Of a DNA stretch of 64,000 nucleotides, positions 26,022-42,354 are shown piece after piece; within the stretch, counting starts at the first letter, position 1, and each line of letters begins with the position of its first letter. Below the pieces are notes generated by a model. The model was not told the DNA's origin. It made no database searches and was given only the letters and a program-made list of their open reading frames with translations. The stretch comes from an uncultured Gammaproteobacteria bacterium (GTDB lineage Bacteria > Patescibacteriota > Patescibacteriia > Magasanikbacterales > UBA922): contig OZ246405.1 in the NCBI GenBank assembly GCA_965231005.1, positions 1,095,829 to 1,159,828 on the forward strand. Reading direction: 5' to 3'. A program made the position numbers and the translations under genes.

Positions 26022-26083
26022 TGGCGGACACGCGTCTAGTGGTCTGCGGATGACTTCCTTGCGAAACATCCTGGCGACAGTAC
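26022..26083 (+). pseudogene. degenerate partial copy of tRNA-Glu (D-arm and anticodon-arm segments only)
   Basis: Shares gtctagtggt (26034-26043) and catcctggcgacag (26067-26080) with the tRNA-Glu immediately downstream, in same order; no T-arm or acceptor. Confidence 0.35.
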
Positions 26084-26165: not shown

Positions 26166-26190
26166 AGAAGGAACAGATAGAACTCTGAGC

Positions 26191-26215
26191 AGCCGCGCAG
26201 CAAAGCGCGGTTTTT
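26191..26215 (+). terminator. terminator-like GC hairpin after tRNA-Glu
   Basis: gccgcgc-agcaaa-gcgcgg followed by ttttt. Confidence 0.4.
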
Positions 26216-26290
26216 GGTTCCAGCTACACTCTTGCTCCCGGTAACCGCACGTTAGAACTCTGGCAGCCGACACCAGACATGCGATCGCCC

Positions 26291-26320
26291 TTGACAAGGT
26301 TGCACAAGGTTGGCTATACT
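26291..26320 (+). promoter_or_regulatory. sigma70-like promoter for island cargo operon
   Basis: TTGACA (26291-26296), 18-nt spacer, TATACT (26315-26320), about 8 nt before ATG at 26328. Confidence 0.5.
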
Positions 26321-26327
26321 TGCGGGC

Positions 26328-28382
26328 ATGAACAACTCTGACACAAATGATTTCATCATGATACAGGATGCGGCAGCATACCTGGACGTGAGCGCGAGCA
26401 CTCTGCGACGTTGGGAGGCAACGGGCAAGCTCGTGCCGGTTCGTCATCCACAGAATAGATACCGCTACTACAAGCGCTCTCAGCTGGAGCCGCTGCGCCT
26501 TGACTACACGCACGCGGAGCTCGAGGAGCCACATCGGCTCTTCTCGACGGCCATCGCGAAGATCGATGGCAACAAGAAGCTGCGTGATCCCCAGCAGGAG
26601 GCGCACAGCCACGTCCGCAAGCATTTCGCGACTTCGGATGCCCCCGCGATCCTGCAGATTCCGGTTGGCTGCGGGAAGACAGGGGTCATGGCCACACTCC
26701 CGTTTGGGGTTGCTAAGGGACGAGTGCTGGTTATCGTGCCAAACACCACGATTCGGGACGGAGTCGCCTCGGCGCTGAACAGTTCTAGTGCCAGGGCGTT
26801 TCTGAGGAAAGCGGAGGTCTTGTCCGACTTCTCGCACGGACCATTCCGGGCGATCCTGGATGGACCGAACGCGAACCTCTCCGACTGCGCAGACAGCCAT
26901 TTCGTCGTGGCGAACATTCAACAGCTGGCAAGTCGCGCTGACAGGTGGTTACCGCAGTTTCCGGACGACTTCTTCGACATGATCTTGGTGGACGAAGGTC
27001 ACCATAACGCCGCTCAGAGTTGGACGAGGGTGTTCGAGCGCTTTCCGAAGGCGAAAGTCGTCAGTCTGACGGCGACACCATTTCGCAGCGATGGGAAGCG
27101 ACTCCTCGGCGAGGTGATCTATCGCTACAGCTATACCCAGGCGATGCTGAAGGGCTACATCAAGCGCCTGCATGCCATCAACGCCTCGCCCCAGGAGATA
27201 TACTTTACCTACCGAGGTGATGAACGTCGCCACACTCTTGAGGAGGTGCTGGCGCTGAGAGAAGAGGCGTGGTTTCGCAGAGGCGTAGCCCTCGCGCCCG
27301 AGTGCAACAGACATATCGTCGATGCCAGCATTCATCGCTGCCTAAAGCTCAGGGAGAAGACCGGCCTCAAGCACCAGGTCATTGCGGCGGCTTGTTCGGT
27401 CGACCATGCACGGCAGGTGGAGGCACTCTACGAGCAGCGTAACTTCTCGACACGCTGCATCCACAGCAAGATGCCGGCGGAGGAGCAGGAGGCAGCGCTC
27501 CTGGCGCTTAGGAGCCGAAAGATCGACTGCATCGTGCAGGTGCAGATGTTGGGTGAAGGATTCGACCACCCCCCACTCTCCGTCGGCGCGATCTTTCGAC
27601 CCTATCGAAGCCTATCGCCGTTTATCCAATTCGTCGGTCGGATCATGAGGGTCGTGCACCAGGGGGACCCGGAGCATCCAGACAACAACGGCTACATCGT
27701 CTCGCATGTTGGACTAAACAACGATACCAACTGGGCCGACTTCCGCGAAATCGACCTCGACGACCAAGCTGAGATCCATCGCTGGCTCACGGAAAGTGAC
27801 ACAGAGTCGAGTGGCTCCGGAGAGGGCGGCCACGGGAGGAGGTTCGACGGTGGGATGGCGGTCGCAGACGAGGTAATCAGCCACTTCATCACACAGTCGT
27901 ATCTCGATCCGAACGACGACCGCGTCCTTGAGACGATTCTCAACCAGAAGATCCCTGGCACTCCATTCACGCTCAGCGCGCTCGTCTCGAAAGACGAGTT
28001 GAAGGCAAGAATGCTCGACGCCCAGAAGGAGCTGGAGCAAGCGCCGGTCCCCATCATTCCGCAACCACAGGACGTCCGCCGCACGACGAGACGCCGGGTC
28101 AATCAGCGATCGCGATCCGTCGCGAAACGGGTTCTTGATGACCTCCACCTCGGACTGCGCGGCCGTGAGGTCTCGAGAGCTGTGGCAGGTGCCGGGGGGA
28201 AGGCCAATCTCGACGCGCTGGTGGTTCTGATGAGCCGCGCAGTGAACGAGTACCTCGGAGTCGAGAAGGGTGGGCGAAGTGAAGTCCCAGGAGGCGCGCT
28301 TCAAGAAGTTTACGATCAGCTTGACGCACTGGGCGACCAAGTCAGGGACGAGGTCGCAGCTTCCATTTCAGAAAATAAGTAA
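26328..28382 (+). CDS. HTH (MerR/excisionase-like) domain fused to SF2 helicase (ResIII/DEAH-like ATPase)
   Basis: N-term IQDAAAYLDVSASTLRRWEATGKL HTH. Helicase motifs: I VGCGKTG, II ILVDEGHH, III SLTATP, V/VI QMLGEGFDHP ... FVGRIMR. ORF listed from 26310, but the -10 lies inside that start. About 230-aa C-terminal extension unassigned. Confidence 0.65.
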   Translation: MNNSDTNDFIMIQDAAAYLDVSASTLRRWEATGKLVPVRHPQNRYRYYKRSQLEPLRLDYTHAELEEPHRLFSTAIAKIDGNKKLRDPQQEAHSHVRKHFATSDAPAILQIPVGCGKTGVMATLPFGVAKGRVLVIVPNTTIRDGVASALNSSSARAFLRKAEVLSDFSHGPFRAILDGPNANLSDCADSHFVVANIQQLASRADRWLPQFPDDFFDMILVDEGHHNAAQSWTRVFERFPKAKVVSLTATPFRSDGKRLLGEVIYRYSYTQAMLKGYIKRLHAINASPQEIYFTYRGDERRHTLEEVLALREEAWFRRGVALAPECNRHIVDASIHRCLKLREKTGLKHQVIAAACSVDHARQVEALYEQRNFSTRCIHSKMPAEEQEAALLALRSRKIDCIVQVQMLGEGFDHPPLSVGAIFRPYRSLSPFIQFVGRIMRVVHQGDPEHPDNNGYIVSHVGLNNDTNWADFREIDLDDQAEIHRWLTESDTESSGSGEGGHGRRFDGGMAVADEVISHFITQSYLDPNDDRVLETILNQKIPGTPFTLSALVSKDELKARMLDAQKELEQAPVPIIPQPQDVRRTTRRRVNQRSRSVAKRVLDDLHLGLRGREVSRAVAGAGGKANLDALVVLMSRAVNEYLGVEKGGRSEVPGGALQEVYDQLDALGDQVRDEVAASISENK

Positions 28383-28388
28383 GAAACT

Positions 28389-28622
28389 ATGCCACAAATA
28401 AAGAATATTGCCCGTTCAGCGACGATTGACACAGCCAAGCGACAACGGTCGTGCAAGCGGTGTCGGGCAACGAAATCGATTGACGCGGGTTCGGACCACT
28501 TGGTGGTCCACGAAGCCCAGCGCGACTTCTACTACTGTCAGCGACACGCTATCGAGATCCTGGACACGGCAATCATTCATTGCCAGACCCTGAAGAAGCA
28601 GCTGGAGGCGGCTGCGATCTAG
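28389..28622 (+). CDS. small hypothetical protein with CxxC ... CxxH pattern (possible zinc ribbon)
   Basis: 77-aa ORF starting 7 nt after helicase stop; SCKRCRATKS ... YYCQRH; could be non-coding shadow in GC-rich DNA. Confidence 0.3.
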   Translation: MPQIKNIARSATIDTAKRQRSCKRCRATKSIDAGSDHLVVHEAQRDFYYCQRHAIEILDTAIIHCQTLKKQLEAAAI

Positions 28623-28663
28623 CTGGTCTTGCTGTGAATCGGCTCCAACGCGCGAAGAATCTT

Positions 28664-30109
28664 ATGACTACCGTCTCGGATTTCTACAACCTCAACCGCA
28701 GCCAGGGTGACCTGGATTTTGTGGACGTCGATATCTACGGCGATGTTCCTGTCTTTCTCGATCCTCGTGCCCTCCGACTACTCCCGACGCAGTGGGCCGA
28801 CCATTGTGTGAGCCTACTCCAGGACTTCTTCACCGTTGTACTGGGGCACATCCAAGCTGGGCGCGACCAGGCGGCTCGTTCATTGCTGGCAGCTCTGCGA
28901 GAGCCGAATGAGACTCATCTTGGGTTGTCCAAGGGCCGCTCTCAGGGCCGCGCGCTCGGCCGCACTTCCGCGTCACATGTGTGGGAGGCCCTGGCCAAGA
29001 GTTCCGCGGCTCGAAGTGGGCTTCTTGTGGACTTGGAGGACACCGTTCTGCTCGTCGAGGGCATTTCTTCGGACATCGTGTCTGACATGGCCACCAACAT
29101 AGTTCGAGGACCACTGATTGAGTACACCCAGGATGTGTGTCGTCAATTCGGAATCCCTCTGGTACCAGGAGTCGCATCGGGACCGTTGTGGAACCCGCAG
29201 ACTGGGCGCTGGGATCAAGCCTTGGTGGAACTACCCAAACCGCCAAGTGGAAGACTGCTGCTGATTCCGAAGGTCATCGTCAGGTACAAGCTCGACTACG
29301 ATGTTGGCGAATACTACCGACACTTCCTGCTCGAGCATCTCAAGATGGTCGAACTGCGGGCGAACTCCGAGCTCGTCGAACTACTCAGAGACGGCCGGCG
29401 CAGGGTCACCAAGAAGAAGCTGATCGAGAAGTACGGCAACTCCAAGGCCGCAGTCGTGCGGCTCACTCAGCGCTACCCACAGATTCTCGAGGACTACCGC
29501 CGTGCAAAGGACCGCGGTGTCTCTCCTCCACTAGAGCACGACACCATCGCCGATCTAACTCGGACACAGGAGCCGCAGTGGGACTCTCTGCTGAACGACG
29601 TTGTCACCAAGAATCCCGGCAGATCCGACGCATCAGCCTACCATGCTGCGGTTGAACGACTGTTGTCGGCATCCTTTTATCCAAACTGGACGAATCCAAG
29701 GAAGGAGGAGCCGCTTCACGACGGCAGGAAGCGGATAGATATTACATACACGAATATGGCCTCGTCGGGGTTCTTCTCTTGGCTGTCGAATCACCATCCT
29801 AGCGGCTCGATCATGGTTGAGTGCAAGAACTACTCGGGTGACCCGGCAAATCCCGAGCTTGATCAGCTGTCAGGACGCTTCTCCCCCAACAGGGGCAAGG
29901 TTGGCTTCCTGGTCTGTCGCTCTGTGCAGAACCGATCCCTATTCGAGCAGCGGTGCAAGGACACCGCCAGCGATGGTCGCGGGTTCATTCTCGTGCTCGA
30001 CGACGATGACCTGAGACTGATTGTCCAATCGAGGAAGGACGGAAATGCCAAGGTCGTTGACCAGATGCTTCACGAACGATTCGATCGGTTGGTTGGACTG
30101 GGGCGATGA
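28664..30109 (+). CDS. hypothetical protein with C-terminal PD-(D/E)xK-like nuclease motif
   Basis: ORF listed from 28580; MTTVSDFYNL start at 28664 avoids overlap. C-terminal RIDITYTN...(13 aa)...IMVECKNYS fits D...ExK restriction-endonuclease-fold signature, followed by Q..GRFS..GFLV. N-terminal about 330 aa unassigned. Confidence 0.45.
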   Translation: MTTVSDFYNLNRSQGDLDFVDVDIYGDVPVFLDPRALRLLPTQWADHCVSLLQDFFTVVLGHIQAGRDQAARSLLAALREPNETHLGLSKGRSQGRALGRTSASHVWEALAKSSAARSGLLVDLEDTVLLVEGISSDIVSDMATNIVRGPLIEYTQDVCRQFGIPLVPGVASGPLWNPQTGRWDQALVELPKPPSGRLLLIPKVIVRYKLDYDVGEYYRHFLLEHLKMVELRANSELVELLRDGRRRVTKKKLIEKYGNSKAAVVRLTQRYPQILEDYRRAKDRGVSPPLEHDTIADLTRTQEPQWDSLLNDVVTKNPGRSDASAYHAAVERLLSASFYPNWTNPRKEEPLHDGRKRIDITYTNMASSGFFSWLSNHHPSGSIMVECKNYSGDPANPELDQLSGRFSPNRGKVGFLVCRSVQNRSLFEQRCKDTASDGRGFILVLDDDDLRLIVQSRKDGNAKVVDQMLHERFDRLVGLGR

Positions 30110-30113
30110 GGGC

Positions 30114-31532
30114 CTACATCCACGTTGGCATGAGAGCAACTTCTAGTTCACCGCCGCTCCGTAGGCCAACGCTGCGAGCAACTGCGACGACTGCTTCCCG
30201 TCGCTTCGTTGCATCGTTGGCTCGCAGCATCTCGTCGATACCCTCAGCGAATTGCAGGAGCTGCGGTGTTTTCGGATCGTCGGCGTCGGGATCTCCACCA
30301 ACCGACTCCATCCACTCCACCATGCGTAGCGCTTCTCTGAGGCCCTGGTGCTCCATGCCGTAGAGCTCCTCGTCGACGTAGCCCTGCGCGTACTCGGTGG
30401 CGAGAGAGCGAAGTCGCTCTTGCAGCGTGCGTCGTTGTCGCCGGAGCTCGGCAACGCGCTCAGCCGATGACTTGTCGCGGTCCCGTTTCTGCTCACGCAA
30501 CTGCTTCTTCAGCTTCCGGATGACGGTCTCGGGGAGCTTCATCTCGAGCAGCTTGTCGACGACGGCTTGGTCAAGCTCGTCCGCCTTCCTCGCGAATCGA
30601 CAGAGCTTCGTGTGGCAGCGGTAGTAGCGGTACTTCTTGCCGCTCTTCTTGCGGTGCTCGGAGCCAACCAGGTTGCCGGCGCAACGCGGACACTTCACCA
30701 GGCCAGAGAGAAGGAACAGGTGTTTGCGCGGCTTGATACCGTGTCCACCACCTCGGACGGCGAAGACCTGCTGTGCGCGGGTGAACAGGTCCTTGGAGAC
30801 GAGAGCCGGGTATGACCCAGGAAAGACACCGACCTTGGTGACCATGAGCCCGTGGTAGAAGGGGTTCTGCAGGATCCTGCACCACTTGGTCGCGGCGATC
30901 TTGTTGCCGTACCTGCTGACCAGGCCCTTGCGGTACATGGCGTCAGCGAGTTCGGGGCTGGTGAGCTTCCCTTCGCTCCACAGCTCGAAGGCCTCGCGGA
31001 CCTTCATGGCCCGCGCCGGGTCGAAGACCAAGCGGCGGTTCTCCCAGAGGTAGCCAACTGGTGCTGGGCCGTTCCACAGGCCCTTCCTGAGCCGCTGCTC
31101 GAGGCTCTTGCGCACTTCGTGCGCCATGTTCGCGCTAGCGAACTCTGCGTTTGCAATCATAATATCTTCTGTAAATTGACCAGCGGGAGAGTCGTCGATG
31201 TGCTCAACAACGGAGTGGACCTTCGCACCGTGCTGTCGCAGCAGCGCGCGGTACACGTTGTACTGGTAGGTCCTGCGAGACAGGCGGTCGATCTTGTGCA
31301 CCAGGATGCCTGTGACGGCCGGGTCCTTCTTGACCCTCGCAATAGCGTCCAGCAAGCCTGGCCTCACGACGTTCTGCTTATAGGCGCTCTCGACGTCGGT
31401 GTAGTTCTCGACGATCTTGAGTCCGTGGTCATGCGCGTAACGCTTCATCGCGTGTAGTTGCGCTGGGATGGACAGCTCTCTGGCTGCCTGCGGGCCGGTA
31501 GAGACCCGCGCATAGGTTACGATATACATAGA
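30114..31532 (-). CDS. large serine recombinase (resolvase-domain integrase)
   Basis: N-term YARVSTGPQ...IPAQL catalytic-Ser resolvase domain (start MSMYIVTYARVST; ORF extends to 31562), recombinase domain, zinc ribbon CPRCAG...YYRCHTKLC, C-terminal coiled coil. Confidence 0.8.
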   Translation of the reverse strand, partial: SMYIVTYARVSTGPQAARELSIPAQLHAMKRYAHDHGLKIVENYTDVESAYKQNVVRPGLLDAIARVKKDPAVTGILVHKIDRLSRRTYQYNVYRALLRQHGAKVHSVVEHIDDSPAGQFTEDIMIANAEFASANMAHEVRKSLEQRLRKGLWNGPAPVGYLWENRRLVFDPARAMKVREAFELWSEGKLTSPELADAMYRKGLVSRYGNKIAATKWCRILQNPFYHGLMVTKVGVFPGSYPALVSKDLFTRAQQVFAVRGGGHGIKPRKHLFLLSGLVKCPRCAGNLVGSEHRKKSGKKYRYYRCHTKLCRFARKADELDQAVVDKLLEMKLPETVIRKLKKQLREQKRDRDKSSAERVAELRRQRRTLQERLRSLATEYAQGYVDEELYGMEHQGLREALRMVEWMESVGGDPDADDPKTPQLLQFAEGIDEMLRANDATKRREAVVAVARSVGLRSGGELEVALMPTWM

Positions 31533-31631
31533 CATTGTCTGGTTAGATGAGTAACCAGCCATCTTGCCAGAATCGCTGTTTTTGTGTAATATGTATCGTA
31601 TCTGAAAGCTGAGGCTCTGAGAGGTATCACA

Positions 31632-31650
31632 ATGAACACACCGTGTTCAT
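31632..31650. promoter_or_regulatory. perfect palindrome ATGAACAC-acc-GTGTTCAT upstream of recombinase gene (operator-like)
   Basis: 8-bp inverted repeat with 3-bp spacer, about 100 nt upstream of recombinase start on its promoter side. Confidence 0.35.
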
Positions 31651-31854
31651 TTGCATACCCCTTCCTGTGGATCGAGCTGTTTCCAGTTCTCTCCACTCGT
31701 CTCGGCTCAGGCACGTCAGCAAAAGACTACGCTGCAAGCAGCAGCGGGCCGTCGCGAGAGAGAGACTTCCGCGGCAGCGCCGGCAATTGATTACCAGTTG
31801 CTGCGTTCAAGCAGTTCCTCAGGAGGGTTCTAAACTCATGCCTACATGCCTGCG

Positions 31855-31891
31855 AAAAAATGAGTTGAGCTTTTGCTCAGCTCATTTTTTT
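31855..31891. terminator. terminator-like hairpin with flanking A/T runs (bidirectional)
   Basis: aaaaaatgagttgagc-tttt-gctcagctcattttttt; 11-bp stem with one G-U. Confidence 0.4.
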
Positions 31892-31900
31892 GTTGCAAGT

Positions 31901-31914
31901 AAGGGGAATCGAAC
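31901..31914. repeat. inverted partial copy of tRNA-Glu T-loop/acceptor core (gttcgattcccctt on minus strand)
   Basis: Reverse complement of aaggggaatcgaac matches tRNA 26142-26154 (gttcgattcccct) 13/13; not a functional tRNA (no T-stem pairing). Confidence 0.3.
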
Positions 31915-32023
31915 TGGGGATGGTAAGGGGCAGCGCCCCTTACATTTCTGGGGGTGACCGAGCGCAAGCGAGGACAAGAGGGGCGGAAGCCCCTATTGGG
32001 AGCGAGAATACGCGACGTGAGAT

Positions 32024-32039
32024 TTCCCCTACGGGCTGC
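32024..32039. repeat. attR-like 16-bp direct repeat of tRNA-Glu 3' end
   Basis: ttcccctacgggctgc identical to 26148-26163. Confidence 0.6.
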
Positions 32040-32106
32040 AGAAAGTAAAAATCCCGAGCTTGCTCGAGGATTTTTATTTTTAAAGCACGGACGGGGAAGA
32101 CACAGT

Positions 32107-32124
32107 ATTCCCCTACGGCCTGCC
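32107..32124. repeat. second att-like copy (attcccctacggcctgcc, 1 mismatch to tRNA 3' end)
   Basis: Matches tRNA 26147-26164 with g->c change; 68 bp after first attR copy. Confidence 0.45.
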
Positions 32125-32175
32125 GGCAGGCAGGGCTGCAGAGATAAAAAAATCCAAATTTATTTGGTTTTTTTA

Positions 32176-32203
32176 TTGACTTTTTCTCAAAAAATAGCAT
32201 AAT
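32176..32203 (+). promoter_or_regulatory. sigma70-like promoter TTGACT-16-CATAAT
   Basis: ttgact (32176-32181), cataat (32198-32203); 10 nt upstream of small ORF 32214-32420. Confidence 0.35.
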
Positions 32204-32213
32204 AGAAGTACCA

Positions 32214-32420
32214 ATGCTCATCCTGGAGGACCTCATGACAAAGACCAAGAAAAAAAAGCCGCCCCCCGGCCAAACTTGGGACCCACACGCACTGTTGCGT
32301 GCACGCCCTCCAGTGGATCCGGAACGAGAGGCGCTAAACAAGCGTCTGCGTGAAGCGATCCCTCGTGGGGCTGCCCAACCCGGCGGCATCATCTGCGACG
32401 AGCGCCCTCCTCAGGAGTAG
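32214..32420 (+). CDS. small Pro/Arg-rich hypothetical ORF (doubtful)
   Basis: 68 aa, no recognisable features; possibly a transcribed non-coding leader. Confidence 0.2.
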   Translation: MLILEDLMTKTKKKKPPPGQTWDPHALLRARPPVDPEREALNKRLREAIPRGAAQPGGIICDERPPQE

Positions 32421-32604
32421 GCGCCCGTACCTGCAATACTTTTGCGACGTTGTTCCCGAGCACCGGGAGCACTCATCGCACTCGCGGTGTACGGGAACAA
32501 CAAAAGAACATCTTATCTAAAGATGTTTTTTTGATTTATAACATTGACAAACCAAACAAAACATGAGATAAATACCCTACTTTCTCTCATCAAGAAAGCC
32601 TGTG

Positions 32605-32761
32605 CTGGGATGGCATAGGAACGCTCTTTCCAAAGGTTGGAACTTCTACTGGGATGGTAGTCGAGAGCTGAAACATTTTTCCCCATGATGAGCATACACG
32701 GGATGTGGATGTGGGGACGGGTGGTGGTTCAATCGAATGGATCACAGTATCTCTGGGATGG
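32605..32761. repeat. three copies of CTGGGATGG (32605, 32649, 32753) plus gggatgtggatgtgggg; iteron-like cluster
   Basis: Exact 9-mer three times within 160 bp in an AT-rich stretch upstream of ORF 32795-33676. Confidence 0.3.
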
Positions 32762-32794
32762 AGATAAGCCTGTAGTTTCACCAAAGAGGATGAC

Positions 32795-33676
32795 ATGTCA
32801 ACCACAACATTGACTTTCAACGAGGCCTGGAGCTCTGGGCCGCAAGTGTGGCTCCTGGAAGAAGGGAATGTCGGTGTCGAGCTGATGTACCTGTGGGCCA
32901 TGGGCCAAGCAACGTCACTGCAAGATCTGGAAGACCGGCTGATTGCCCGCTTCCCGAAAACCTGTCTGCTGATGCGCGACAACCACAAGGCGCTGCTGAA
33001 ATTCTGGACCGAACGGTACAAGCTGACCGCTCCGAGAACGAAGCATCCGCCAGAGGTGATCGAGCGGACACTGGATCGGTTCAAAGAATTGGCACTCGCC
33101 GGAACAAATACAGGGCGTAGGTCTGGTCTTTCGAAGTACTACATGCAAATCCTCAGCAAGGATACATGGGAGGAAAAGCCCCTGAGCTCCATGCATCGGT
33201 CTTCAGGCAAAACCCAATGCCTGGTGCCAGATAGATGGACCAAACGCAAAGTGTTTCACCCTCACTTCACTGCCTCAATGGGCAAACTCGGTGAGGTCGA
33301 TGTGAGGATCGCTCGTATCAGCGGACGAAGGAATCGCAAATTCTGGATCGGATTCTGCTTTGCACAGCGTGATCTGACTGCGCAGAAATGTGCAGAACTC
33401 CAGAAGTTGCCATTCACCCACTGGAGCGAAGCGACCATCCCGAGAACGGTTCTCAAAGTCGATGCTGCATTCGAGCTGATCATGTTCATGCCAGAAACAG
33501 CAATCGAGGCACGTATTCGTCAAACAGTGCGTGCAGTCAACTCGGGCCCCCTTTCTGACAATGCACGCTCTATCAAGTCATCCAAACAAATCGAACTGCT
33601 GCGTCAGATGAGCGACTGGCTCGAGGCGAACGGGATTCCGTGTACGTACCTCGAAGAAAATCGCATTGGGCTGTAG
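32795..33676 (+). CDS. hypothetical protein (293 aa, GC-rich)
   Basis: Long ORF with GC-rich codon usage, RBS-like aagagga 8 nt upstream; no recognisable motif. Confidence 0.4.
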   Translation: MSTTTLTFNEAWSSGPQVWLLEEGNVGVELMYLWAMGQATSLQDLEDRLIARFPKTCLLMRDNHKALLKFWTERYKLTAPRTKHPPEVIERTLDRFKELALAGTNTGRRSGLSKYYMQILSKDTWEEKPLSSMHRSSGKTQCLVPDRWTKRKVFHPHFTASMGKLGEVDVRIARISGRRNRKFWIGFCFAQRDLTAQKCAELQKLPFTHWSEATIPRTVLKVDAAFELIMFMPETAIEARIRQTVRAVNSGPLSDNARSIKSSKQIELLRQMSDWLEANGIPCTYLEENRIGL

Positions 33677-33896
33677 CTCAAAAACTCATCCCCGATACGT
33701 CGGGGGGGCAGGATGAGCCAACAACAGAACTCAAAGGAGATGGACACGACCTGCCCGTGTCCTCCCATACTGTTTCTTTAATAGAGGAAATAGTTAGGAT
33801 AAAAAACTACCACAAGCTGGTGGTTTTTTATTATCAGCAGCTTGCAAAAAAACAGTTTCACCATTATTATAAATCTACCCACACTTAACCAAGGAG

Positions 33897-34574
33897 ATGA
33901 ACGTGAAACATTCAAACGTTCTTTTCATTGCGATGGCTACAGCGTCGGTCATCCTTTTCACATCTTGCACTGGCAAAAAGGAAGCCACCCGGAAAACGGC
34001 AATTGTTGTCGAAACCACCCCAAGACCAAGAAAGCCAAATCCACCTCAACCGCCACCTTCCACTCCAAAATCACCCCAACCTCCACCAATCGACCTCTCG
34101 CAGTACAGGTACATCAAGACCGCCTGCACCACCTGTGGTTGCCCAAGAAGATACCTTGCACGCCAAGGAGATTCAGTGGTGTTGGTGACAGCAGCTGAAC
34201 TCAACAAAAATGCTCTCTGGAAGATCCACACAGGTAGCTTGAGAAGCAGGTCTGGACAATCGATCGCAACAACAGTCTTTGAACACTTTCGAGGCGGCTG
34301 TCTGGATTGGGGCAATGGTGGAACCTTGATCATCAACAGAGGAGGCTGCTTCAGAGCTTCAGGCACTCATTGGTCCCGAAGGACAAGACTCCCCAACCGT
34401 GCTCGAATCGGAGTTCAGGGGGCTGTTGGCTATCGAAGCTTTGGCAGCGGAAGATACGACAAGCACTACCTGGACTTTCAAGGACGTGGAAACTGTCACC
34501 CTTCTTTAATTCACGAAGATCGAGTGAATCGGAATACAGTCGGAGTATTTTGGCTGGTCCGAAAAGAACCATAA
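33897..34574 (+). CDS. lipoprotein with Pro-rich linker (hypothetical)
   Basis: Signal peptide with lipobox-like ILFTSC, then TPRPRKPNPPQPPPSTPKSPQPPP linker; AAGGAG RBS. Confidence 0.45.
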   Translation: MNVKHSNVLFIAMATASVILFTSCTGKKEATRKTAIVVETTPRPRKPNPPQPPPSTPKSPQPPPIDLSQYRYIKTACTTCGCPRRYLARQGDSVVLVTAAELNKNALWKIHTGSLRSRSGQSIATTVFEHFRGGCLDWGNGGTLIINRGGCFRASGTHWSRRTRLPNRARIGVQGAVGYRSFGSGRYDKHYLDFQGRGNCHPSLIHEDRVNRNTVGVFWLVRKEP

Positions 34575-34705
34575 GTAATCACAACAAGAACAACAACCCA
34601 CAACAGCGGCACCCTCCTCGGAGGCTCTGCCGCTTTTCTAATTAAAAAAGCTCCAAACCTGTTCAGATCTAAAGCTTTTTCCCCTTTTTCGTTTTTGCTT
34701 GTGTC

Positions 34706-36958
34706 CTATTTTGCACTCAGGCGGACCCTGCACCTCATTGACCAGATTTCTGCTCCAAAGACACTTCTATCCCTTATCGAAGGTTTTTTTCTTGCACCTA
34801 CGATATGCAGATTCAAAATATTTCCTTGTAGTTTTACATGCCCTCTCGGCGAACGAACTATGCCGAGTCCTTCAATCCAATCAGCCTGTGGAAGTCGTAC
34901 ATGGTCAACAATGCGTATCTTCTTTCCTGGCCTGAAACGGTAAAAACGAAGACTGCCAGCAAGCAGTTCAACAATCAAACGACGGTCAGGAATATATGCA
35001 ATATCCACATTTGCAAGTTCTGCTATAGACCGTGCATCCTTGCTCAACATATATGGAAATCCTAACGACTTCCTCAATGGAACAAAGCGGCCATTTTGAT
35101 ATTCTTGTGCGCCTACTCTAAAACCCCAGTCTTTCGATCGGACAACGTAGTATCCTGATCCTGTACTCCGGCTTGACGCTGGGCCAGTTGTGTCAGTGAA
35201 GAACATGTAGTACCACCTACCAATGTGCACAAGCGATGGCTGGCCTGCGCCATATGGATGGACAAGTGTGTTTCCCTGTTGTCTTTTTTGCCATGCATGT
35301 TGCAATCCCCTTTTTGGTGTGTCGTCAACACTAAAGACTTCGAGAACATTGCTCTTGTTCTTTACGACACCAAAGCCATGAGGATGACGCCCTGCCAGTT
35401 CTTCCCACTTCCCTCCTCTCCAAAGATTCTGTTCTATTGCCTTTACAGCACAGTCAGACCAGTGTTTGTTGCATCCTCGTGGAAATTGATACGTGTTGAA
35501 CAAGTGAACGCCATAACCTTGGAATGTCGCACGTACAAATAATTCAATACGTCCTTCTCCGCCTTTTGCCAAAGCAAGTGGTGGATGGAAACTGCGCACA
35601 GAGCCAGGATGATTTGCCACAGATGTATCAACGATCTTTGACCAGTGTTTGTTTTCAAAACGTTGATTCTTGCTTTGTCTGACTGTCCAAATAGTCCCTG
35701 TTCTGGTCAGTGCGAAGAGATGGGCATATCCTTTCTTACCCTGGATAGCCTGCACGTCGGTAGGTTTGTTTGGTACTTTGATTCTCTGCCAAGGTCTACT
35801 CCACTGCCTAGCCCAGCGACTGCCCGCAGGCCGGTTTCGGACTTTGTAATAGATGTGCCCATTTGTTCCTGTAAGTCCAAACAGAACAATACTATTACTA
35901 TTTCCAGGAGCATCTGGAACAATGCCAGAACAAACACGTGGTGAATGAAAGAAAAGAGCTTTCTGCTTAGGAACTGGGAGCAATCCCTGCCGTAGCATAC
36001 TCTCTTCCCTACCAAAAATCTGACCTGACCAAGTGCCGAACACATACACCTTTCCGTGCGCGTCGCTGTGAGCAACAACATCATGAATCGGAGAACCAAC
36101 AACATTCCAAGCGTCCTTGAACTGAAGCTTCCTTGCATGTCCAGGACTGTATGGATTTTGCCAGTTTGTGTACAGCGTGTTTGTACCCTTCTTGACTGCA
36201 TAGGCTTGGATACGACCATGCGAATGCTGTTTGTCTTGCCATGTTGCGAGTGCAAAATCACTTGCAAAAAAATTCTTTCGGATGTCACCAACATAGTGTG
36301 GACGTCTCTCCCACTTGCCAGATTCATCTCGTTGAAAGTAATGCAAGCGACTGTCTGCACTCAAACTGAATACAGCAACATCTTGCCAGACACGATCGCG
36401 CTGCGGATTGTAATGCTTCATCAGAGTTGCGACAAGTGGTGCATGATGCGTACCACCCAATCCAGCATGCCATGATGTCCACCCACCGTGCCCTTCAATC
36501 GTAGGTTGGTGACCTCGATTGAGAACTCGCTTGAAATGAAGGCTATTCGTTCTTCTTGCAATCCCGATCTTTGTTCCAGGGCCAAAGTTGTATCCACCAT
36601 ATGCCATGATGTATCCGGTCTTGCTAGTCGCAATTACACTCGGGTCACATGTGTGCATCCCGTCAAAGTGGCTCTTACTCGTTCTTTTTGTTGATCCAAA
36701 AACACGAACAGGGTTTGTCCACTTTTGTCCAGCATTCTTCTTGCTAAAACAGATCGCATCACCACTGTTTTCGCAGCACCACCACATTTTCAAGACGTTT
36801 CCGTCCCTCATGATAGTTGGTGCATACTGATATGCGGAAAACGACTTGTGAACTAGGACTGGTTTGTCACAGCCGAGAAGCTGGAAAATAGTCTCAGATT
36901 CCTGTGTCCACCCAAGCTGAGTGCTAAAGAGTATGAACAAAAAAAGTACTCGGTTCAT
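34706..36958 (-). CDS. large secreted hypothetical protein (possible beta-propeller)
   Basis: 749-756 aa; signal peptide MNRVLFLFILFSTQLGW; Trp/Gly-rich repeats; start preceded by AAGGGGGA SD shared with other GC-rich genes. Confidence 0.4.
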   Translation of the reverse strand: MNRVLFLFILFSTQLGWTQESETIFQLLGCDKPVLVHKSFSAYQYAPTIMRDGNVLKMWWCCENSGDAICFSKKNAGQKWTNPVRVFGSTKRTSKSHFDGMHTCDPSVIATSKTGYIMAYGGYNFGPGTKIGIARRTNSLHFKRVLNRGHQPTIEGHGGWTSWHAGLGGTHHAPLVATLMKHYNPQRDRVWQDVAVFSLSADSRLHYFQRDESGKWERRPHYVGDIRKNFFASDFALATWQDKQHSHGRIQAYAVKKGTNTLYTNWQNPYSPGHARKLQFKDAWNVVGSPIHDVVAHSDAHGKVYVFGTWSGQIFGREESMLRQGLLPVPKQKALFFHSPRVCSGIVPDAPGNSNSIVLFGLTGTNGHIYYKVRNRPAGSRWARQWSRPWQRIKVPNKPTDVQAIQGKKGYAHLFALTRTGTIWTVRQSKNQRFENKHWSKIVDTSVANHPGSVRSFHPPLALAKGGEGRIELFVRATFQGYGVHLFNTYQFPRGCNKHWSDCAVKAIEQNLWRGGKWEELAGRHPHGFGVVKNKSNVLEVFSVDDTPKRGLQHAWQKRQQGNTLVHPYGAGQPSLVHIGRWYYMFFTDTTGPASSRSTGSGYYVVRSKDWGFRVGAQEYQNGRFVPLRKSLGFPYMLSKDARSIAELANVDIAYIPDRRLIVELLAGSLRFYRFRPGKKIRIVDHVRLPQADWIEGLGIVRSPRGHVKLQGNILNLHIVGARKKPSIRDRSVFGAEIWSMRCRVRLSAK

Positions 36959-37134
36959 CATGTCCCCCTTTTTCATGAATGACCTTTACACCTTAGCAGA
37001 ACAGAAAGAGAAAATCCAATCTGAAAACTTTATAAAAAATTCATACTTTATTTGTAACAATTTCAATAGATATTCTTCCTTTTTAAAAGAATATCACCCA
37101 ACCAACCGCTCATTCACAATACAAGGGGGAAACC

Positions 37135-40100
37135 ATGAAAACCAGACTGTTCATTGCAGCATGTATTGCGCTGCATATCTGGGGCTGTTCAAACGGCGAA
37201 CACGAAAACGAAGCAGATGCAAAGGCTGACTTTGTCATTGGCGAAACAGCAAAAGGTGCCTGTGACGACAAAGAGCTGCCGAACAATACCAGAACCATCT
37301 TGAGCAAGTACTGCGCGGACTGTCATGGTCCGAACAGCGGGAAGCTCGGTGGATTTGGTACAGTGCTCGATGCAAAGGCAATGACGATTGGCGACAACGC
37401 GCTGGTAAAAGCTGGCAAGGTTGCTGAATCACGTCTGTTTACGAAGCTGAAAGCTGCTGGCGGGAACATGCCACTAAGTGCAGATGATCTGAGCAAGGAC
37501 GAAGTCGACACGCTGCGCGACTGGATTAACTGCGGCGCAGAGAGCTGGGACGAAGAATGCACAAGGAAATTTATTTCCAATGAAGAAATGCACAAGATAA
37601 TGGCAGATGACCTTAGCAGCCTTGCTGCTGAAGAACGGAAGAACATCCGCTATATCACACTCACGCACCTGTACAACGCATGTGTCAACCGAGACCAGCT
37701 GGATATCTATCGAACTGGCATTAGCAAACTCGTAAACAGCCTGAGCTGGACAAAGGGCATTTTCAAACCAGTTCCAGTAGGTAAATTCGGAACGATCTAC
37801 CGAATCAACCTGAGTCTGTATGGTTGGCTTCCAGGACAAACAAGCGAAAAAGGCATGTGGGAGCTCATTGAAAAGGCATATCCATACGGCTTTAAGGTTG
37901 AAAAAGGCATTGACAACGATTTTTCAGAGGTTGTAAGTCAGACCAAAACGAATACACCATACGTGCACGCTGATTGGTTTGCAAACCGTGCTGGAAAACC
38001 TCCACTCTATCACGCCCTGCTGAATCTTCCATTGACTGACACTGAGCTTGAAAAGGACTTCTTGAGTGTCGATGTTTTGTCGAATATCAAAAAGACAGAG
38101 CAAGGCAACAAAAACGCTTCTACGCGAGTAATCCGTGCTGCTGTACAAGATTCTGGTGTTTCAAACCACAACCGCATGATCGAACGTCATAAGTCAAAAT
38201 ATGGCTGGTACTGGAAAAGTTATGACTTTGCTGGCAGTGTTGGCAAGCAAGACCTTGAGCAAAATCCGCTCGGTCCAAACGAGACACCAGTAACTTTCGA
38301 ACATGATGGCGGTGAGATGATTTTCACGCTCCCAAATGGCCTTGATGGCTACTTGGTGACGAATGCTGCAAGTTGCAGGATCGACGTGGCACCAACTGCC
38401 ATTGTTTCTGATCCAAAAAGCCAGGACAAGGCTGTGCGTCCAGGAAGTTCTTGCATGGGCTGCCACTACAAGGGCAAAATTCCAGCTGCGGACTTTGTGC
38501 GTGATTCAATTACGAGCAAGAAGCAACAGTTTATCACCGAACATGGCCAGAAAGCATTTCAGGCGGTTTTGAACCTCTATCCGCCGAAAAAGGAGTTTTC
38601 TGCAGCGATCAATCAAGAGCAACAGGATTTCCTGAAACAGTTGGCGCTTGCTGGCGTTGATCCATCAAAGGATGAACCAGTCTCTGCACTGGCAAATTCG
38701 TTTGAAGATCAACTCGACAAGGTAAAGATCGCAGCAACGCTTGGAATTGATCCCAAGGAAATTGAAAACTTCCTCAAGTTCGACGCTGTAGCAAGTAGCC
38801 TGATCGGCTCAGTGCGTAAAGATGGTGAGACCATCCCACGAGACAAGTTCTGCACATACTTCTCTGCGATTCTGAACCAGAAGAATGGCACGTTCGCTGG
38901 CTACACACCACTGGCAGATGTAAAAGTTTGCCAGCCACCAAAAGACGTTGCTGGCTGTCTCCAAAACGAGTGCCTGAAAGATGCTGACTGCAATAGCAAA
39001 GACGAATGCACTGTTGGGAGCTGCAACATACAAAAAGGATGCGTGTTTACGCCTATTGCGAAGATATGCGATGATGGAAATCAGTGCACCACAGACAAAT
39101 GCATAACTGGAACTCCAAAAAAATGCACACATACACCTACTCCGAATGCAAGCTGCAATGCAGACAACAACGTTTGCACCAAGTTTGACTCGTGTTCGGA
39201 CAGCGGAGTTTGCAAAGCAGGAGAGCAAAAAGTCTGCCCAAAGCCAGTGAATCCATGTGAAAAACAAAAATGCGATTCGAAAATCGGCTGTGCAGTTGAC
39301 ATCTTGCCAAATGGGACAAGCTGCCCAGGTGGTCTTTGCCACTCTGGAAAGTGCGTACTAGCTGCAAAGCAAATAAGTGCAGGAGACCTTTTCACATGTG
39401 CAGTAACACTGAACGACACTGTTGTCTGCTGGGGTCTAAACAAATTTGGTCAGCTGGGAAATGGTTCAAAAGTGCTAAACACCTCAGTACCTGTTCATGT
39501 GAAGGGACTCACCAACGTAGAAAGCGTATCTGCTGGTGTATCACATGCTTGTGCTATTAAAAAGGACAAGACCCTGTGGTGCTGGGGTTTTAACAACTAT
39601 GGTCAACTCTCAGTGGGAAGCAACAAGGGCAGTCCAATACCAGTGAATATTCCATCTATGAAGGTAAATCAAGTTGGGATTGGAAATTCTCATACCTGCG
39701 CGCTAAACACCACCGGCTCTGTATACTGCTGGGGTGACAATTCCTACGGACAACTTGGCACAGATACGAAGGTGCTCAAAAACTCCCATAAGCCTGTCCT
39801 TGCGAGCAGTGGAATCGAACAAATAGCACTTGGTCCTCAACATTCTTGTGCCATTCAGTCTAGTAATGGCGTCTCCTGCTGGGGACGTAATCAATACGGA
39901 CAACTCGGCAATGGAAGTAAGGATGATACTCACATCACCTACAAGTGGAAAAATCTCGCTCTTCCTACATTTATTGATGCTGGATACCTAAATACCTGCG
40001 CAATAAAAAGTAATTCGTCGCTTTACTGTTGGGGAAGCAACATCCATGGAAAACTTGGTGTAGGGAGTACCAAGGCTGGCGAGGTGCTTACTCACGTCCT

Positions 40101-40428
40101 TGCAACCGCAGTTCCTACTGATGTGACAGACGTAAGTATTGGCCGACATCATGTGTGCGTGAAGACCAAAAAGAACAAATTCCATTGCTGGGGAAGCAAC
40201 AAAGATGGACAAGTAGGTTTCAATCCTCAATTCATTCACAAAAAGGAATTCCTCTTCCCACTGGCCATGGGATCTGGTAAACAGATATCGACTCGAAATT
40301 CACATACGTGTGCAATCATGGATGATAAGACGGTAAAGTGCTGGGGATTCAACTCTCTTGGACAAATAGGACACGGGAAAACAGGGGGAAGTGTTATAGG
40401 GCCGGTCCACGTATTGCCTCCGAAGTGA
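37135..40428 (+). CDS. giant lipoprotein: N-terminal CxxCH motif region, Myxococcus-type cysteine-rich repeats, seven C-terminal RCC1 repeats
   Basis: Lipobox IWGCS; YCADCHGP (heme-binding-like CxxCH); CxDGNxCTxDKC-type repeats (CDDGNQCTTDKC etc.); RCC1 blades (…CWGxNxxGQLGxG… seven times). Confidence 0.6.
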   Translation: MKTRLFIAACIALHIWGCSNGEHENEADAKADFVIGETAKGACDDKELPNNTRTILSKYCADCHGPNSGKLGGFGTVLDAKAMTIGDNALVKAGKVAESRLFTKLKAAGGNMPLSADDLSKDEVDTLRDWINCGAESWDEECTRKFISNEEMHKIMADDLSSLAAEERKNIRYITLTHLYNACVNRDQLDIYRTGISKLVNSLSWTKGIFKPVPVGKFGTIYRINLSLYGWLPGQTSEKGMWELIEKAYPYGFKVEKGIDNDFSEVVSQTKTNTPYVHADWFANRAGKPPLYHALLNLPLTDTELEKDFLSVDVLSNIKKTEQGNKNASTRVIRAAVQDSGVSNHNRMIERHKSKYGWYWKSYDFAGSVGKQDLEQNPLGPNETPVTFEHDGGEMIFTLPNGLDGYLVTNAASCRIDVAPTAIVSDPKSQDKAVRPGSSCMGCHYKGKIPAADFVRDSITSKKQQFITEHGQKAFQAVLNLYPPKKEFSAAINQEQQDFLKQLALAGVDPSKDEPVSALANSFEDQLDKVKIAATLGIDPKEIENFLKFDAVASSLIGSVRKDGETIPRDKFCTYFSAILNQKNGTFAGYTPLADVKVCQPPKDVAGCLQNECLKDADCNSKDECTVGSCNIQKGCVFTPIAKICDDGNQCTTDKCITGTPKKCTHTPTPNASCNADNNVCTKFDSCSDSGVCKAGEQKVCPKPVNPCEKQKCDSKIGCAVDILPNGTSCPGGLCHSGKCVLAAKQISAGDLFTCAVTLNDTVVCWGLNKFGQLGNGSKVLNTSVPVHVKGLTNVESVSAGVSHACAIKKDKTLWCWGFNNYGQLSVGSNKGSPIPVNIPSMKVNQVGIGNSHTCALNTTGSVYCWGDNSYGQLGTDTKVLKNSHKPVLASSGIEQIALGPQHSCAIQSSNGVSCWGRNQYGQLGNGSKDDTHITYKWKNLALPTFIDAGYLNTCAIKSNSSLYCWGSNIHGKLGVGSTKAGEVLTHVLATAVPTDVTDVSIGRHHVCVKTKKNKFHCWGSNKDGQVGFNPQFIHKKEFLFPLAMGSGKQISTRNSHTCAIMDDKTVKCWGFNSLGQIGHGKTGGSVIGPVHVLPPK

Positions 40429-40612
40429 AGATCAAGTAGCACACCACGCTCACGCGTTGTGCGCTCAACCAAACGAACGTGGACGACTGTTGCTTTTCGA
40501 AGCGACGGTCGTCCACTTTTTAATTTGATAAAAACTTTATATTCCATAATTGACAAAAATGGAAAAAAGCACTTATAGTTAAACTACAGAACTCAAACCA
40601 AGGGGGAAACCA

Positions 40613-42223
40613 ATGAAGAACGCTGTTCTTTTTACAATCTGCTGCCTACTTTTGACGCTCGGACCGAGCTGCAGCTCAAATAATCCAGTTTGCGACTTGG
40701 GTGATGTTGAGTGCAGAAGCGGTGGAAGGATGTTTTTTTGTAGAGTCTCGACAACTTCCAATGGAAACTTTTGGAAGTTTTCCCACACCTGTTCATCCAA
40801 GAAGTGCAAAAGTGCAACAACGTGCGCACCGAAGTCAACCAAAAAAGACGCAGGATCAACCCAAAAGCAGGACGGAAAAAGCACTGCAAAATACTGCGGT
40901 GACAGCATCTGTGAAACAAACGAAAGCTGCGAAACTTGCCCAAAGGACTGTGGAAAGTGTAAACCAAAATGCGGCGACGGAACATGCAACGGTCAAACAG
41001 AAAATTGCGCTGTCTGCCCACAAGACTGCAAGTGCAAGTCAGGAACCAAATGCAACAAAGCAAAAGGCATTCAAGCCTGCGTCTACGATCCAAAGTGCGG
41101 CAATGGGAAATGCGACGGTCAAACAGAAAACTGTTTCAACTGTTCCAAGGACTGCAAGTGTTCTAGTGGACAAATCTGCAGTCCGAAAAAACAAAGCTGC
41201 GTCAAACCATATTGTGGAGATGGTCTTTGCCGATCTTCTGATGGTGAACGGTGCTACAACTGCGAAGTAGATTGCAAATGCAGCTCGAGCTTGGTCTGCA
41301 GTAAGTCAAAGGGTGGATGCTGCAAACAAAAGACCTGTTCAAGCTATCCCAAAGGAATATGTGGAATCCAGTCAGATGGCTGTGACAGTACCATTTCCTG
41401 TGGATGCCCAAAGAACTATGTCTGTGGTCATAACAAGTGCAAGCTAAACTGTTCAGCACTCTGCAAAAACAAATGCGGTAAGCTGAGCAATGGCTGTAAC
41501 TGCGGCTCTTGTGGATACAACTCACTTTGCATCGGGAATGTTTGTAAATCATGCAAACCACTGTGCACTGGAAAATGCGGGAACTTTCTCGGCTGCAATT
41601 GTAGTATCTACAAAAAGTGTTCAAAGTGGTACCTCTGTGTACAAAACCAGTGCGTCAACTGCCAAGAGCTTTGCCTATTCAAAAACAAGTGGTGTGGTAA
41701 CTTCAGTGCTTGCGGCACCAACAAAAACTGCGTAAACAGCAAGTGCTCAAGTGGATACGTCTGCAAGTCAAACAAATGCACCAAAAAACCACCAGAGTGT
41801 TCGGGCGGTGCAGGCTGTGCCCCAGAAAAACTCTGCTGTGGCGGCAAGTGTAAACTTGCAAAGTTGCAGGACGACTACGGAAAGAACTGGATGTCCGCAA
41901 AGAGTGCATACTACAAGCAGACCATTTCAGGACAACTTTACCCATCCTCTGATGTTGACCTTTTTCAGGTAAAAGCGACTCTCTCTGCAAATGGAAAGAG
42001 CGTAATTCCAATTAAGTTAAAGTTCAACGGACCAGGACTGAACTGCACATTGAAGCGCAAGAAATATGGACCGAATAGTCCAGTAACGTACGCATCGTGC
42101 AACTACGCAAAGGCCTTTACTCCTCAGTGGGGATCAGGAAATGGCTACTACTACTATGTGGAGATTAGGAGCCAAAGCTCTTCTAAAAAAGGCTGCTGGA
42201 CACTGCAGGTCGTGAAAGGATAG
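40613..42223 (+). CDS. secreted cysteine-rich repeat protein with PPC-like C-terminal domain
   Basis: Signal peptide; three tandem about 42-aa repeats CGDGTCNGQTENCAVCPQDCKC / CGNGKCDGQTENCFNCSKDCKC / CGDGLCRSSDGERCYNCEVDCKC; many further CxxC units; C-term …SSDVDLFQVKA… beta-sandwich-like. Confidence 0.55.
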   Translation: MKNAVLFTICCLLLTLGPSCSSNNPVCDLGDVECRSGGRMFFCRVSTTSNGNFWKFSHTCSSKKCKSATTCAPKSTKKDAGSTQKQDGKSTAKYCGDSICETNESCETCPKDCGKCKPKCGDGTCNGQTENCAVCPQDCKCKSGTKCNKAKGIQACVYDPKCGNGKCDGQTENCFNCSKDCKCSSGQICSPKKQSCVKPYCGDGLCRSSDGERCYNCEVDCKCSSSLVCSKSKGGCCKQKTCSSYPKGICGIQSDGCDSTISCGCPKNYVCGHNKCKLNCSALCKNKCGKLSNGCNCGSCGYNSLCIGNVCKSCKPLCTGKCGNFLGCNCSIYKKCSKWYLCVQNQCVNCQELCLFKNKWCGNFSACGTNKNCVNSKCSSGYVCKSNKCTKKPPECSGGAGCAPEKLCCGGKCKLAKLQDDYGKNWMSAKSAYYKQTISGQLYPSSDVDLFQVKATLSANGKSVIPIKLKFNGPGLNCTLKRKKYGPNSPVTYASCNYAKAFTPQWGSGNGYYYYVEIRSQSSSKKGCWTLQVVKG

Positions 42224-42354
42224 ATCGCCCAAAAAATCAAACAAGGAGAAGAAAACACCAACGGTTCTGTCTTGGCAGAGCCAATGGTGTTTTTTCTTGT
42301 CAAAATATAAAAATCAAGGCATACTTGAGTAAGTTATTTTAGTAATTCCAACAT

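Follow-up and report, generated by a model that had tools for sequence, protein, structure and literature searches.

Three exact copies of the 9-mer CTGGGATGG, at positions 32605, 32649 and 32753 of a 64-kb stretch of an AT-rich chromosome (the window; about 36% GC overall), very probably form the loops of RNA hairpins upstream of an open reading frame (ORF) encoding a 293-aa protein. By analogy with known leaders the hairpins may serve as a protein operator controlling translation, a role to which we give somewhat less than an even chance. They lie in the segment 32107-34650, described in the original prediction as a second GC-rich element flanked by attachment (att) sites, lacking an integrase and carrying iteron-like repeats. 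This segment is the first 2.5 kb of the chromosome past the outermost att scar of a tRNA-Glu gene, and not an autonomous or att-bounded element. Taken as a whole, a leader with hairpin loops and no att-bounded element is our best explanation, for and against which we consider the chances evenly divided.

Probable RNA hairpins upstream of the 293-aa gene

The three copies reported in the original prediction were recovered exactly. The window contains four occurrences of the 9-mer against 0.35 expected, and none of 100 shuffled sequences reached four, so the repeats are above background frequency. The fourth occurrence (31463-31471), within the recombinase gene and on its antisense strand, lacks hairpin flanks and is probably due to chance. 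The features of the region upstream of the 293-aa gene are as follows (dG, folding free energy).

32544..32572, plus strand: TTGACA, 17 nt, (TGa)GATAAA, picked out by eye as a candidate promoter for the 293-aa gene
32599..32619, plus strand: hairpin 1, CCUGUGC-UGGGAUG-GCAUAGG, 7 bp including a G·U pair; dG -11.3, z = -3.9
32646..32660, plus strand: hairpin 2, CUAC-UGGGAUG-GUAG, 4 bp; weak if taken alone, dG -3.0, z = -0.4
32700..32716, plus strand: G-rich element GGGAUGUGGAUGUGGGG with two more GGAUG(U) motifs; local structure not significant
32748..32766, plus strand: hairpin 3, UAUCUC-UGGGAUG-GAGAUA, 6 bp; dG -6.3, z = -2.7
32785..32797, plus strand: Shine-Dalgarno (SD) box AGAGGA overlapping the sixth GGAUG (32788-32792), followed by the start codon at 32795
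32795..33676, plus strand: 293-aa orphan (ORFan) gene, with the coding-like order GC3 > GC1 > GC2 of GC content by codon position

The three stems have no common sequence, and all of them display the same C-UGGGAUG-G loop. Stems of 7, 4 and 6 bp compare with 0-2 bp at the other seven occurrences of TGGGATG in the window (joint chance 1.5e-7 under a local null). In a control set of 278 unrelated instances of CTGGGATGG from viral contigs only 6.8% have a stem of at least 4 bp, and the four pairs of instances with both stems of at least 4 bp have identical flanks, that is, they are plain tandem repeats. A family of such motifs in viral contigs was considered and rejected: the 139 pairs found there behave like chance occurrences or tandem coding repeats, not like hairpins.

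When the three copies are aligned, 87.5% of the cells are paired, and both sides have changed in five of the six variable pairs. The observed values of the covariation measures were reached in 0-5 of 500 shuffles, depending on the measure, and registers slid along the alignment give 29-58% pairing. The minimum free energy structure of the whole leader includes all three hairpins, of which 1 and 3 are also significant when folded singly. The G·U pairs, one in hairpin 1 and one closing the loop, are possible only in the plus-strand transcript, and the minus-strand fold loses the pattern. Since the flanks are complementary, covary and pair on the sense strand only, the repeats belong to real RNA hairpins formed by the 5' leader that precedes the 293-aa gene, a conclusion that we consider highly probable.

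In the original prediction the 9-mers, placed in an AT-rich stretch, were read as iterons of a replication origin or as binding sites of the 293-aa protein. Elaborated, this would make them iterons or double-stranded DNA operators in a satellite or tandem integrant that borrows the recombinase of the neighbouring island (island 1 below). The three exact copies are indeed far above chance, the segment adjoins an att-like repeat and the serine-recombinase island, and the 293-aa protein is basic (pI 9.6), so that a Rep or helix-turn-helix (HTH) function is possible. However, each 9-mer tips a hairpin and is no bare direct repeat, conservation is confined to 9 nt, the copies are unevenly spaced (by 44 and 104 nt), and TRF detected no tandem array. 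No DnaA boxes (TTATCCACA, at most one mismatch) were found in 32.1-34.7 kb, and their counts in the window are at the chance level. The repeat-bearing stretch is 48-50% GC and contains no AT-rich unwinding region, the AT-rich part being 32500-32600 only. Binding to double-stranded DNA would leave unexplained both the complementary covarying flanks and the G·U pairing on one strand, and the downstream gene has all six GGATG motifs of the region on its coding strand. Together with the missing right-hand att copy, the lack of any Rep, mobilisation or recombinase remnant in a six-frame scan and the missing circular form, all described below, this makes iterons or DNA operators very improbable.

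Candidate translational operator

Between 32600 and 32795 GGATG occurs six times on the plus strand, which is the sense strand of the 293-aa gene, and never on the minus strand; these six, within 190 nt, are the densest cluster in the 64 kb. Three of them are the hairpin loops, two are in the G-rich element at 32700-32716 between hairpins 2 and 3, which contains GGAUGUGGAUGU and was listed in the original prediction as an additional GGGATGTGGATGTGGGG, and one overlaps the SD box. From this arrangement we infer the likeliest mode of control, one known from Csr/Rsm-controlled leaders such as glgC. Transcription from the candidate promoter at 32544-32572 would yield a leader of about 215 nt. A sequence-specific RNA-binding protein would recognise the GGGAU(G) motifs presented in the loops and would bridge hairpin 3 to the GGAUG overlapping the SD box, 32 nt downstream. 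Such bridging would block the site where ribosomes bind (RBS), causing translational control of the 293-aa gene, by repression or other tuning, and the remaining GGAUG sites would raise the local affinity.

Several observations weigh against this reading, and the differences from the Csr/Rsm system given in the last section should be added to them. The whole leader is no more stable than shuffled sequences (z = -0.07), and hairpin 2 alone is weak. The promoter and the start of transcription are deduced from the sequence only, and the promoter does not pass the scanner, whose rule asks for a T as the sixth base of the -10 hexamer. There is one instance in one genome, with no homologous loci and so no cross-species covariation. 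Finally, generic hairpins with GGA in the loop are common in this GC-rich DNA, and their density is not discriminating; therefore the signal rests on the triple of identical loops and on the density of GGAUG. A search of Rfam over 25500-45500 (E <= 1) retrieved only tRNA and no family for the leader. As for loop-loop kissing, the partner sequence CAUCCCA occurs four times in the window, in no case with a stem around it.

One possibility is that the hairpins have no dedicated protein and act as 5' stabilisers against RNases or as SD-like standby sites, or that local duplication left them behind as selectively neutral remnants. Purine-rich, SD-like loops, the ordinary stability of the whole leader and the single instance agree with this. 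On the other hand, a 9-nt loop block kept at 100% beside diverged, yet complementary, stems indicates selection on both the loop and the pairing; neutral duplicates would retain their stems, as the viral tandem repeats do. Moreover, to judge from the sequence, GGGAUG matches the anti-SD poorly. Overall, hairpins of this kind have a slim chance of being the explanation, though not so slim as that of iterons.

If the operator reading holds, the binder is improbable as canonical CsrA. The ORF of the 293-aa protein is longer than expected by chance (equalled in 0% of 300 shuffles), the protein is predicted to be cytoplasmic, and it has no match in Pfam, PHROGs, NCBIfam, PADLOC or PDB. An exhaustive phmmer search of 1.84 billion representatives returned the protein itself only, and the same was true of this protein, the 223-aa lipoprotein encoded next to it and a 756-aa protein farther downstream in a k-mer/HMMER search among 5.8 billion proteins. 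A single-sequence AlphaFold2 (AF2) model of the 293-aa protein had a mean confidence score (pLDDT) of 44.7, which makes it unusable for comparing folds.

Translational feedback by phage or ribosomal proteins provides an analogy for a further explanation, an autoregulatory operator bound by the 293-aa protein or by the 61-aa protein encoded upstream, with no global Csr-like regulator. In all of the 64 kb the motif is confined to this leader, the two proteins have basic pI values (9.6 and 10.0), their ORFan status fits a private pair of regulator and operator acquired together, and the absence of A-N-GGA, which CsrA requires, favours a different binder. However, neither protein has a recognisable RNA-binding domain in the family libraries searched, AF2 gave no usable structure, and comparative support is lacking. 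This autoregulatory variant is unlikely, though a serious alternative. Slightly broader, and still unlikely, is the suggestion that the triple is the operator of a new RNA-binding regulator, either the 293-aa ORFan or a divergent GGA-reader with altered specificity, acquired with its target in a deeply branching bacterium with a small genome. The two would then constitute a new protein-RNA recognition pair, not a Csr/Rsm site.

Were the operator genuine, it would provide a compact testable motif, a loop block of 9 nt that any stem may carry. It would also mark post-transcriptional control in a lineage without cultured or sequenced relatives, and would be the first functional handle on an ORFan gene.

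The tRNA-Glu locus and the GC-elevated block

The segment 32107-34650 contains three distinct, well-formed transcription units (promoter, SD box, ORF, terminator), and every product is an ORFan. Apart from the 293-aa gene with its leader, the following features were identified.

32176..32203, plus strand: promoter-like site TTGACT-16-CATAAT of the small ORF; 10/12 matches, the best in the region
32235..32420, plus strand: small basic ORF, 61 aa, ORFan; GGAGGA SD box 6 nt upstream
32449..32533, plus strand: candidate compound terminator: GC-rich hairpin, directly adjoining AT-rich one, then U-run
33799..33831, bidirectional: hairpin resembling a terminator, downstream of the 293-aa gene
33842..33870, plus strand: promoter-like site TTGCAA-17-TATTAT of the lipoprotein gene; 9/12 matches
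33903..34574, plus strand: ORFan lipoprotein, 223 aa from the GTG at 33903 (225 aa from the ATG at 33897)

The promoter of the first unit, its small Pro/Arg ORF and the compound stem-loop had all been noted in the original prediction and were found again, the number of promoter-like sites in the region being equal to the shuffle expectation. The product of the small ORF is rich in Lys, Pro and Arg (pI 10.0). It has 61 aa if translation starts at 32235, which the GGAGGA box makes more likely, or 68 aa from the alternative start at 32214. No family match was found for it in Pfam, PHROGs, NCBIfam or PADLOC. The GC-rich hairpin has 21-nt arms (32449-32469 and 32481-32501), and the AT-rich hairpin with the U-run (32501-32533) adjoins it. 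The fold of 32405-32545 has dG of -54 kcal/mol (z = -7.1), not reached by any of 200 shuffles, and the whole structure reads as the terminator of the small ORF.

Of the two orphan ORFs in the original prediction, 293 and 225 aa, both are present, longer than chance and without relatives other than themselves. The second is likely to start at the GTG at 33903 rather than at 33897; in 0.3% of shuffles an ORF of this length was obtained. The 223-aa lipoprotein has a signal peptide with the lipobox LFTSC, a Pro-rich linker and a domain of about 150 aa containing Cys and Trp residues, and nothing similar to it was found in Pfam, PHROGs, NCBIfam, PADLOC or PDB. The single-sequence AF2 model of the C-terminal domain (pLDDT 29) is unusable, and a guess that the domain is a β-trefoil was dropped as unsupported. 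Between the 293-aa gene and the lipoprotein gene there is a 13-codon mini-ORF (33740-33781, MDTTCPCPPILFL) with a perfect AAGGAG SD box. It is overlapped by a stable hairpin (33742-33762), and the string AAGGAGATGRAC from its region recurs at the start of the lipoprotein gene (33891).

On the left, the segment adjoins an array of att-like copies derived from the only tRNA gene detected in the window.

26033..26080, plus strand: degenerate 5' fragment of tRNA-Glu; local alignment shows identity with the tRNA in CGTCTAGTGGT and CATCCTGGCGACAG
26091..26165, plus strand: tRNA-Glu (UUC), the integration target; ARAGORN, Rfam tRNA 64 bits
26147-26164, plus strand: att-like copy 1, the tRNA-Glu 3' end, part of the functional tRNA
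26166..32022: island 1, 57-61% GC; Pfam, PHROGs, PADLOC, composition
32023..32085, plus strand: att-like copy 2 (32023-32040), sharing 16 identical nt with the tRNA 3' end and followed by the tail GCTGCAGAAAGTAAAAATCC and an AT-rich hairpin
32107..32176, plus strand: att-like copy 3 (32107-32124; 17/18 identical), with a similar tail and an AT-rich hairpin (32144-32176)

The copy at 32107-32124 does match the tRNA-Glu 3' end, as claimed in the original prediction; it is the third (26147, 32023, 32107) and not the second. Copies 2 and 3 have a common left edge of tRNA identity and a common tail GCTGCAGA-A-TAAAAATCC with the AT-rich hairpin, which the tRNA copy does not have. Copy 2 starts 84 nt upstream of copy 3, and the two enclose only 66 bp. 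Relative to copy 2, copy 3 carries a 16-nt palindromic insertion CCTGCCGGCAGGCAGG (32119-32134), to which part of its 18-nt likeness to the tRNA end may be due. The 5' pseudo-fragment lies 10 nt upstream of the functional tRNA gene; its D-arm is CGTCTAGTGGT, its anticodon arm has been replaced, and it is a scar of an earlier rearrangement at the site. With three 3'-end copies and this pseudo-fragment, the locus, judged by its sequence, is an integration site used repeatedly and scarred.

Island 1 contains genes for a MerR-HTH/ResIII helicase, a DUF8370/PDC-M36A-like protein (phrog_27295) and a large serine recombinase (30114-31562, minus strand), and looks like a compact mobile defence cassette. 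One metagenome assembly, ERR2281800, breaks inside it from both sides (26973 and 31084), perhaps owing to heterogeneity in copy number or among strains. A search for relatives of island 1, intended to fix its right end, gave only one distant viral contig and distant plasmid matches in other contexts and was uninformative.

Elements integrating at a tRNA 3' end pile up behind the tRNA, as far as the outermost of the displaced 3' ends. By this topology copy 3 is probably the displaced native 3' end of the tRNA plus its terminator. Since the outermost repeat marks the end of the array, the DNA to the right of it is more simply read as pre-existing flank. No further att-like copy was found in 32200-64000, even at relaxed stringency, and the best downstream alignments are at background level. 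A faint candidate for a fourth copy at 44464 (cTTCCCCaaACG) was rejected, as it scores below background alignments. Thus the segment, claimed to be att-flanked, is att-bounded on the left side only, and nothing delimits an element on the right. Its end at 34650 is arbitrary too: the GC-rich region of the window spans 26.1 to about 44.5 kb, and the GC-elevated block of about 12 kb, of which the segment is the beginning, runs on to about 44.5 kb, up to the housekeeping gene tsaD (start at 44575). The rest of the block is as follows.

34706..44463: 756-aa secreted ORFan (minus strand), then the 1097-aa, 536-aa, 156-aa and 441-aa genes
1097-aa gene: lipoprotein, RCC1/CTDC/cytochrome-c-like
536-aa gene: Cys-rich lipoprotein
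156-aa gene: basic protein, with host-like GC content
441-aa gene: CTDC lipoprotein

Lipoproteins or secreted proteins are five of the eight products of the block. Two of these lipoproteins are encoded within 37135-42223: the 1097-aa protein has a cytochrome-c-like domain, Dicty_CTDC repeats and an RCC1 propeller, and the gene of the 536-aa protein, with 79 cysteines, has internal 126-nt repeats. The GC3 values are 0.47-0.65 in the segment, compared with about 0.2 in housekeeping genes. Along the block they are 0.65 in the small ORF, 0.62 in the 293-aa gene, 0.41-0.51 in the next four genes, 0.23 in the 156-aa gene and 0.75 in the 441-aa gene.

Outside the block, between the AT-rich tsaD and major facilitator superfamily (MFS) genes and dnaE, there is a housekeeping-type prs gene (47030-48019) with 57% GC (GC3 0.67). 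It has the SD box AAGGGGGA that is also seen in genes of the block. Further, prs has the RBS context CAAGGGGGAAAnCCATGAA in common with two GC-rich genes, those of the 1097-aa and 536-aa proteins, and AAAGGGGGA is found at the 441-aa gene (sites at 37116, 40593 and 43120). This suggests that genes were acquired singly from one type of donor, outside any island bounded by att sites. As GC3 is heterogeneous and a GC-rich prs outside the block shares the AAGGGGGA box, the block, to judge from composition, is a patchwork of about 12 kb of genes gained by horizontal transfer, most of which encode lipoproteins or secreted proteins, and not one cassette.

The two sets of genes may also differ in their mode of translation initiation. 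None of the four AT-rich genes examined, IMPase, tsaD, MFS and dnaE (starts at 24995, 44575, 45716 and 51659), has a visible SD box, and the GC-rich acquired genes mostly have strong ones (e.g. at the starts 32235, 32795, 33903 and 37135). Motif blocks rich in TTAAC/TTAAT (GTTAATTGTTAATAGTTAACTGTTAAC...) were observed in two host intergenic regions, 25930-25966 and 45590-45715.

A decayed tandem integrant, as the original prediction had it, would have foreign GC3, no recombinase and a reused tRNA-Glu site, and these parts of the claim stand; the right-hand att is missing. In a more developed form, 32.1-44.5 kb (or 32.1-33.8 kb) would be an old tRNA-Glu-linked island that has lost its recombinase and its distal att, copy 3 being the proximal one. 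This concerns origin only and is compatible with the RNA reading of the repeats. It is consistent with the foreign composition (GC3 0.41-0.75 against about 0.2), with the ORFan-rich gene content and with a locus scarred by repeated events; in addition, the small ORF and the 293-aa gene (GC3 0.62-0.65, against 0.41-0.51 in their neighbours on the right) could be a separate, younger acquisition. However, the distal repeat is absent even at relaxed stringency, the resemblance at 44464 being below background, the GC3 of the block is uneven, prs with its AAGGGGGA box argues for piecemeal acquisition, and the integration topology would make the DNA past the last repeat the older flank. We therefore regard an old island as doubtful, less so than any of the other alternatives considered here.

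As for a mobilisable satellite, the other half of that claim, nothing was found in its favour. A six-frame Pfam scan of 32041-34705 detected no remnant of a recombinase, Rep, relaxase or other domain, in agreement with the original observation that a recombinase is lacking. PHROGs, NCBIfam and PADLOC gave no recombinase, replication, mobilisation or packaging match in the segment, and phage, plasmid and viral-contig collections contain no DNA similar to it. The proposed search for the segment elsewhere or as a circle found no circular, extrachromosomal or elsewhere-integrated copy in any collection searched; wherever matched, it belongs to one chromosomal haplotype. The DNA of the window also occurs in an NCBI contig of 1.23 Mb and in two PRJEB17505 metagenome assemblies, collinear and 99.99-100% identical, and exact-protein look-ups of the flanking genes led to that one haplotype only. 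Its sampling is very thin (two metagenome samples and one genome), and the absence of polymorphism is thus weak evidence. With the flanking IMPase gene as the query, the best match in GTDB representative genomes and JGI metagenomes had 36% identity and came without synteny information. No closer relative of the host was found in these two collections.

At the tRNA-Glu locus there are thus att scars and a single small defence island that is plausibly mobile (island 1), and the adjacent block of ORFan and lipoprotein genes is not a second element.

Comparison with known systems

Composite staphylococcal cassette chromosome (SCC) elements at rlmH/orfX and tandem islands at tRNA genes include recombinase-less cassettes with a repeat on both sides. 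The tRNA-Glu locus is similar in that repeated attachment copies lie by a serine-recombinase island and are followed by recombinase-less foreign DNA. It differs in that the right side is unbounded, the extra repeats enclose 66 bp, and the DNA that follows is of mixed GC3.

In Csr/Rsm control, short hairpins with non-conserved stems expose GGA motifs in their loops (PMC7652899). A CsrA dimer bridges sites 10-63 nt apart, and the glgC leader has both a loop site and an SD site (PMC7652899). As in such leaders (E. coli glgC) and in the sponge RNAs CsrB and RsmZ, the leader of the 293-aa gene has multiple GGA motifs on one strand, several of them presented in loops. One GGAUG (32788-32792) overlaps the SD box, and hairpin 3 has its GGA (32756) 32 nt farther upstream, that is, within 10-63 nt. 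[quoted passage not shown]

The differences are in the sequence itself. The A of A-N-GGA (ACA in the E. coli SELEX) is present in every CsrA SELEX ligand of E. coli (PMC7652899) and C. jejuni, whereas it is absent from all six sites here (UGGGA three times, CGGGA, GUGGA, GAGGA). The loops are of 7 nt, or 5 if the U·G pair closes, compared with the usual 6. The Rfam search described above gave no match to the Csr/Rsm families (CsrB, CsrC, RsmX/Y/Z), there is no csrA gene in the 64-kb window, and csrA is carried by only about 30% of bacterial genomes. Thus the leader resembles Csr/Rsm targets in layout and not in the defining sequence, and we do not claim that it belongs to the class of CsrA targets.

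Classical iterons measure about 17-22 bp and are evenly phased; an AT-rich unwinding element and, in most cases, DnaA boxes go with them, and they lie beside a recognisable Rep gene. Like them, the 9-mers are several short exact copies upstream of a gene for a basic protein. Unlike them, they are conserved over 9 nt only, are spaced by 44 and 104 nt, and have complementary flanks that covary. More generally, short exact repeats upstream of a gene should be tested for such covarying complementary flanks before they are called iterons.

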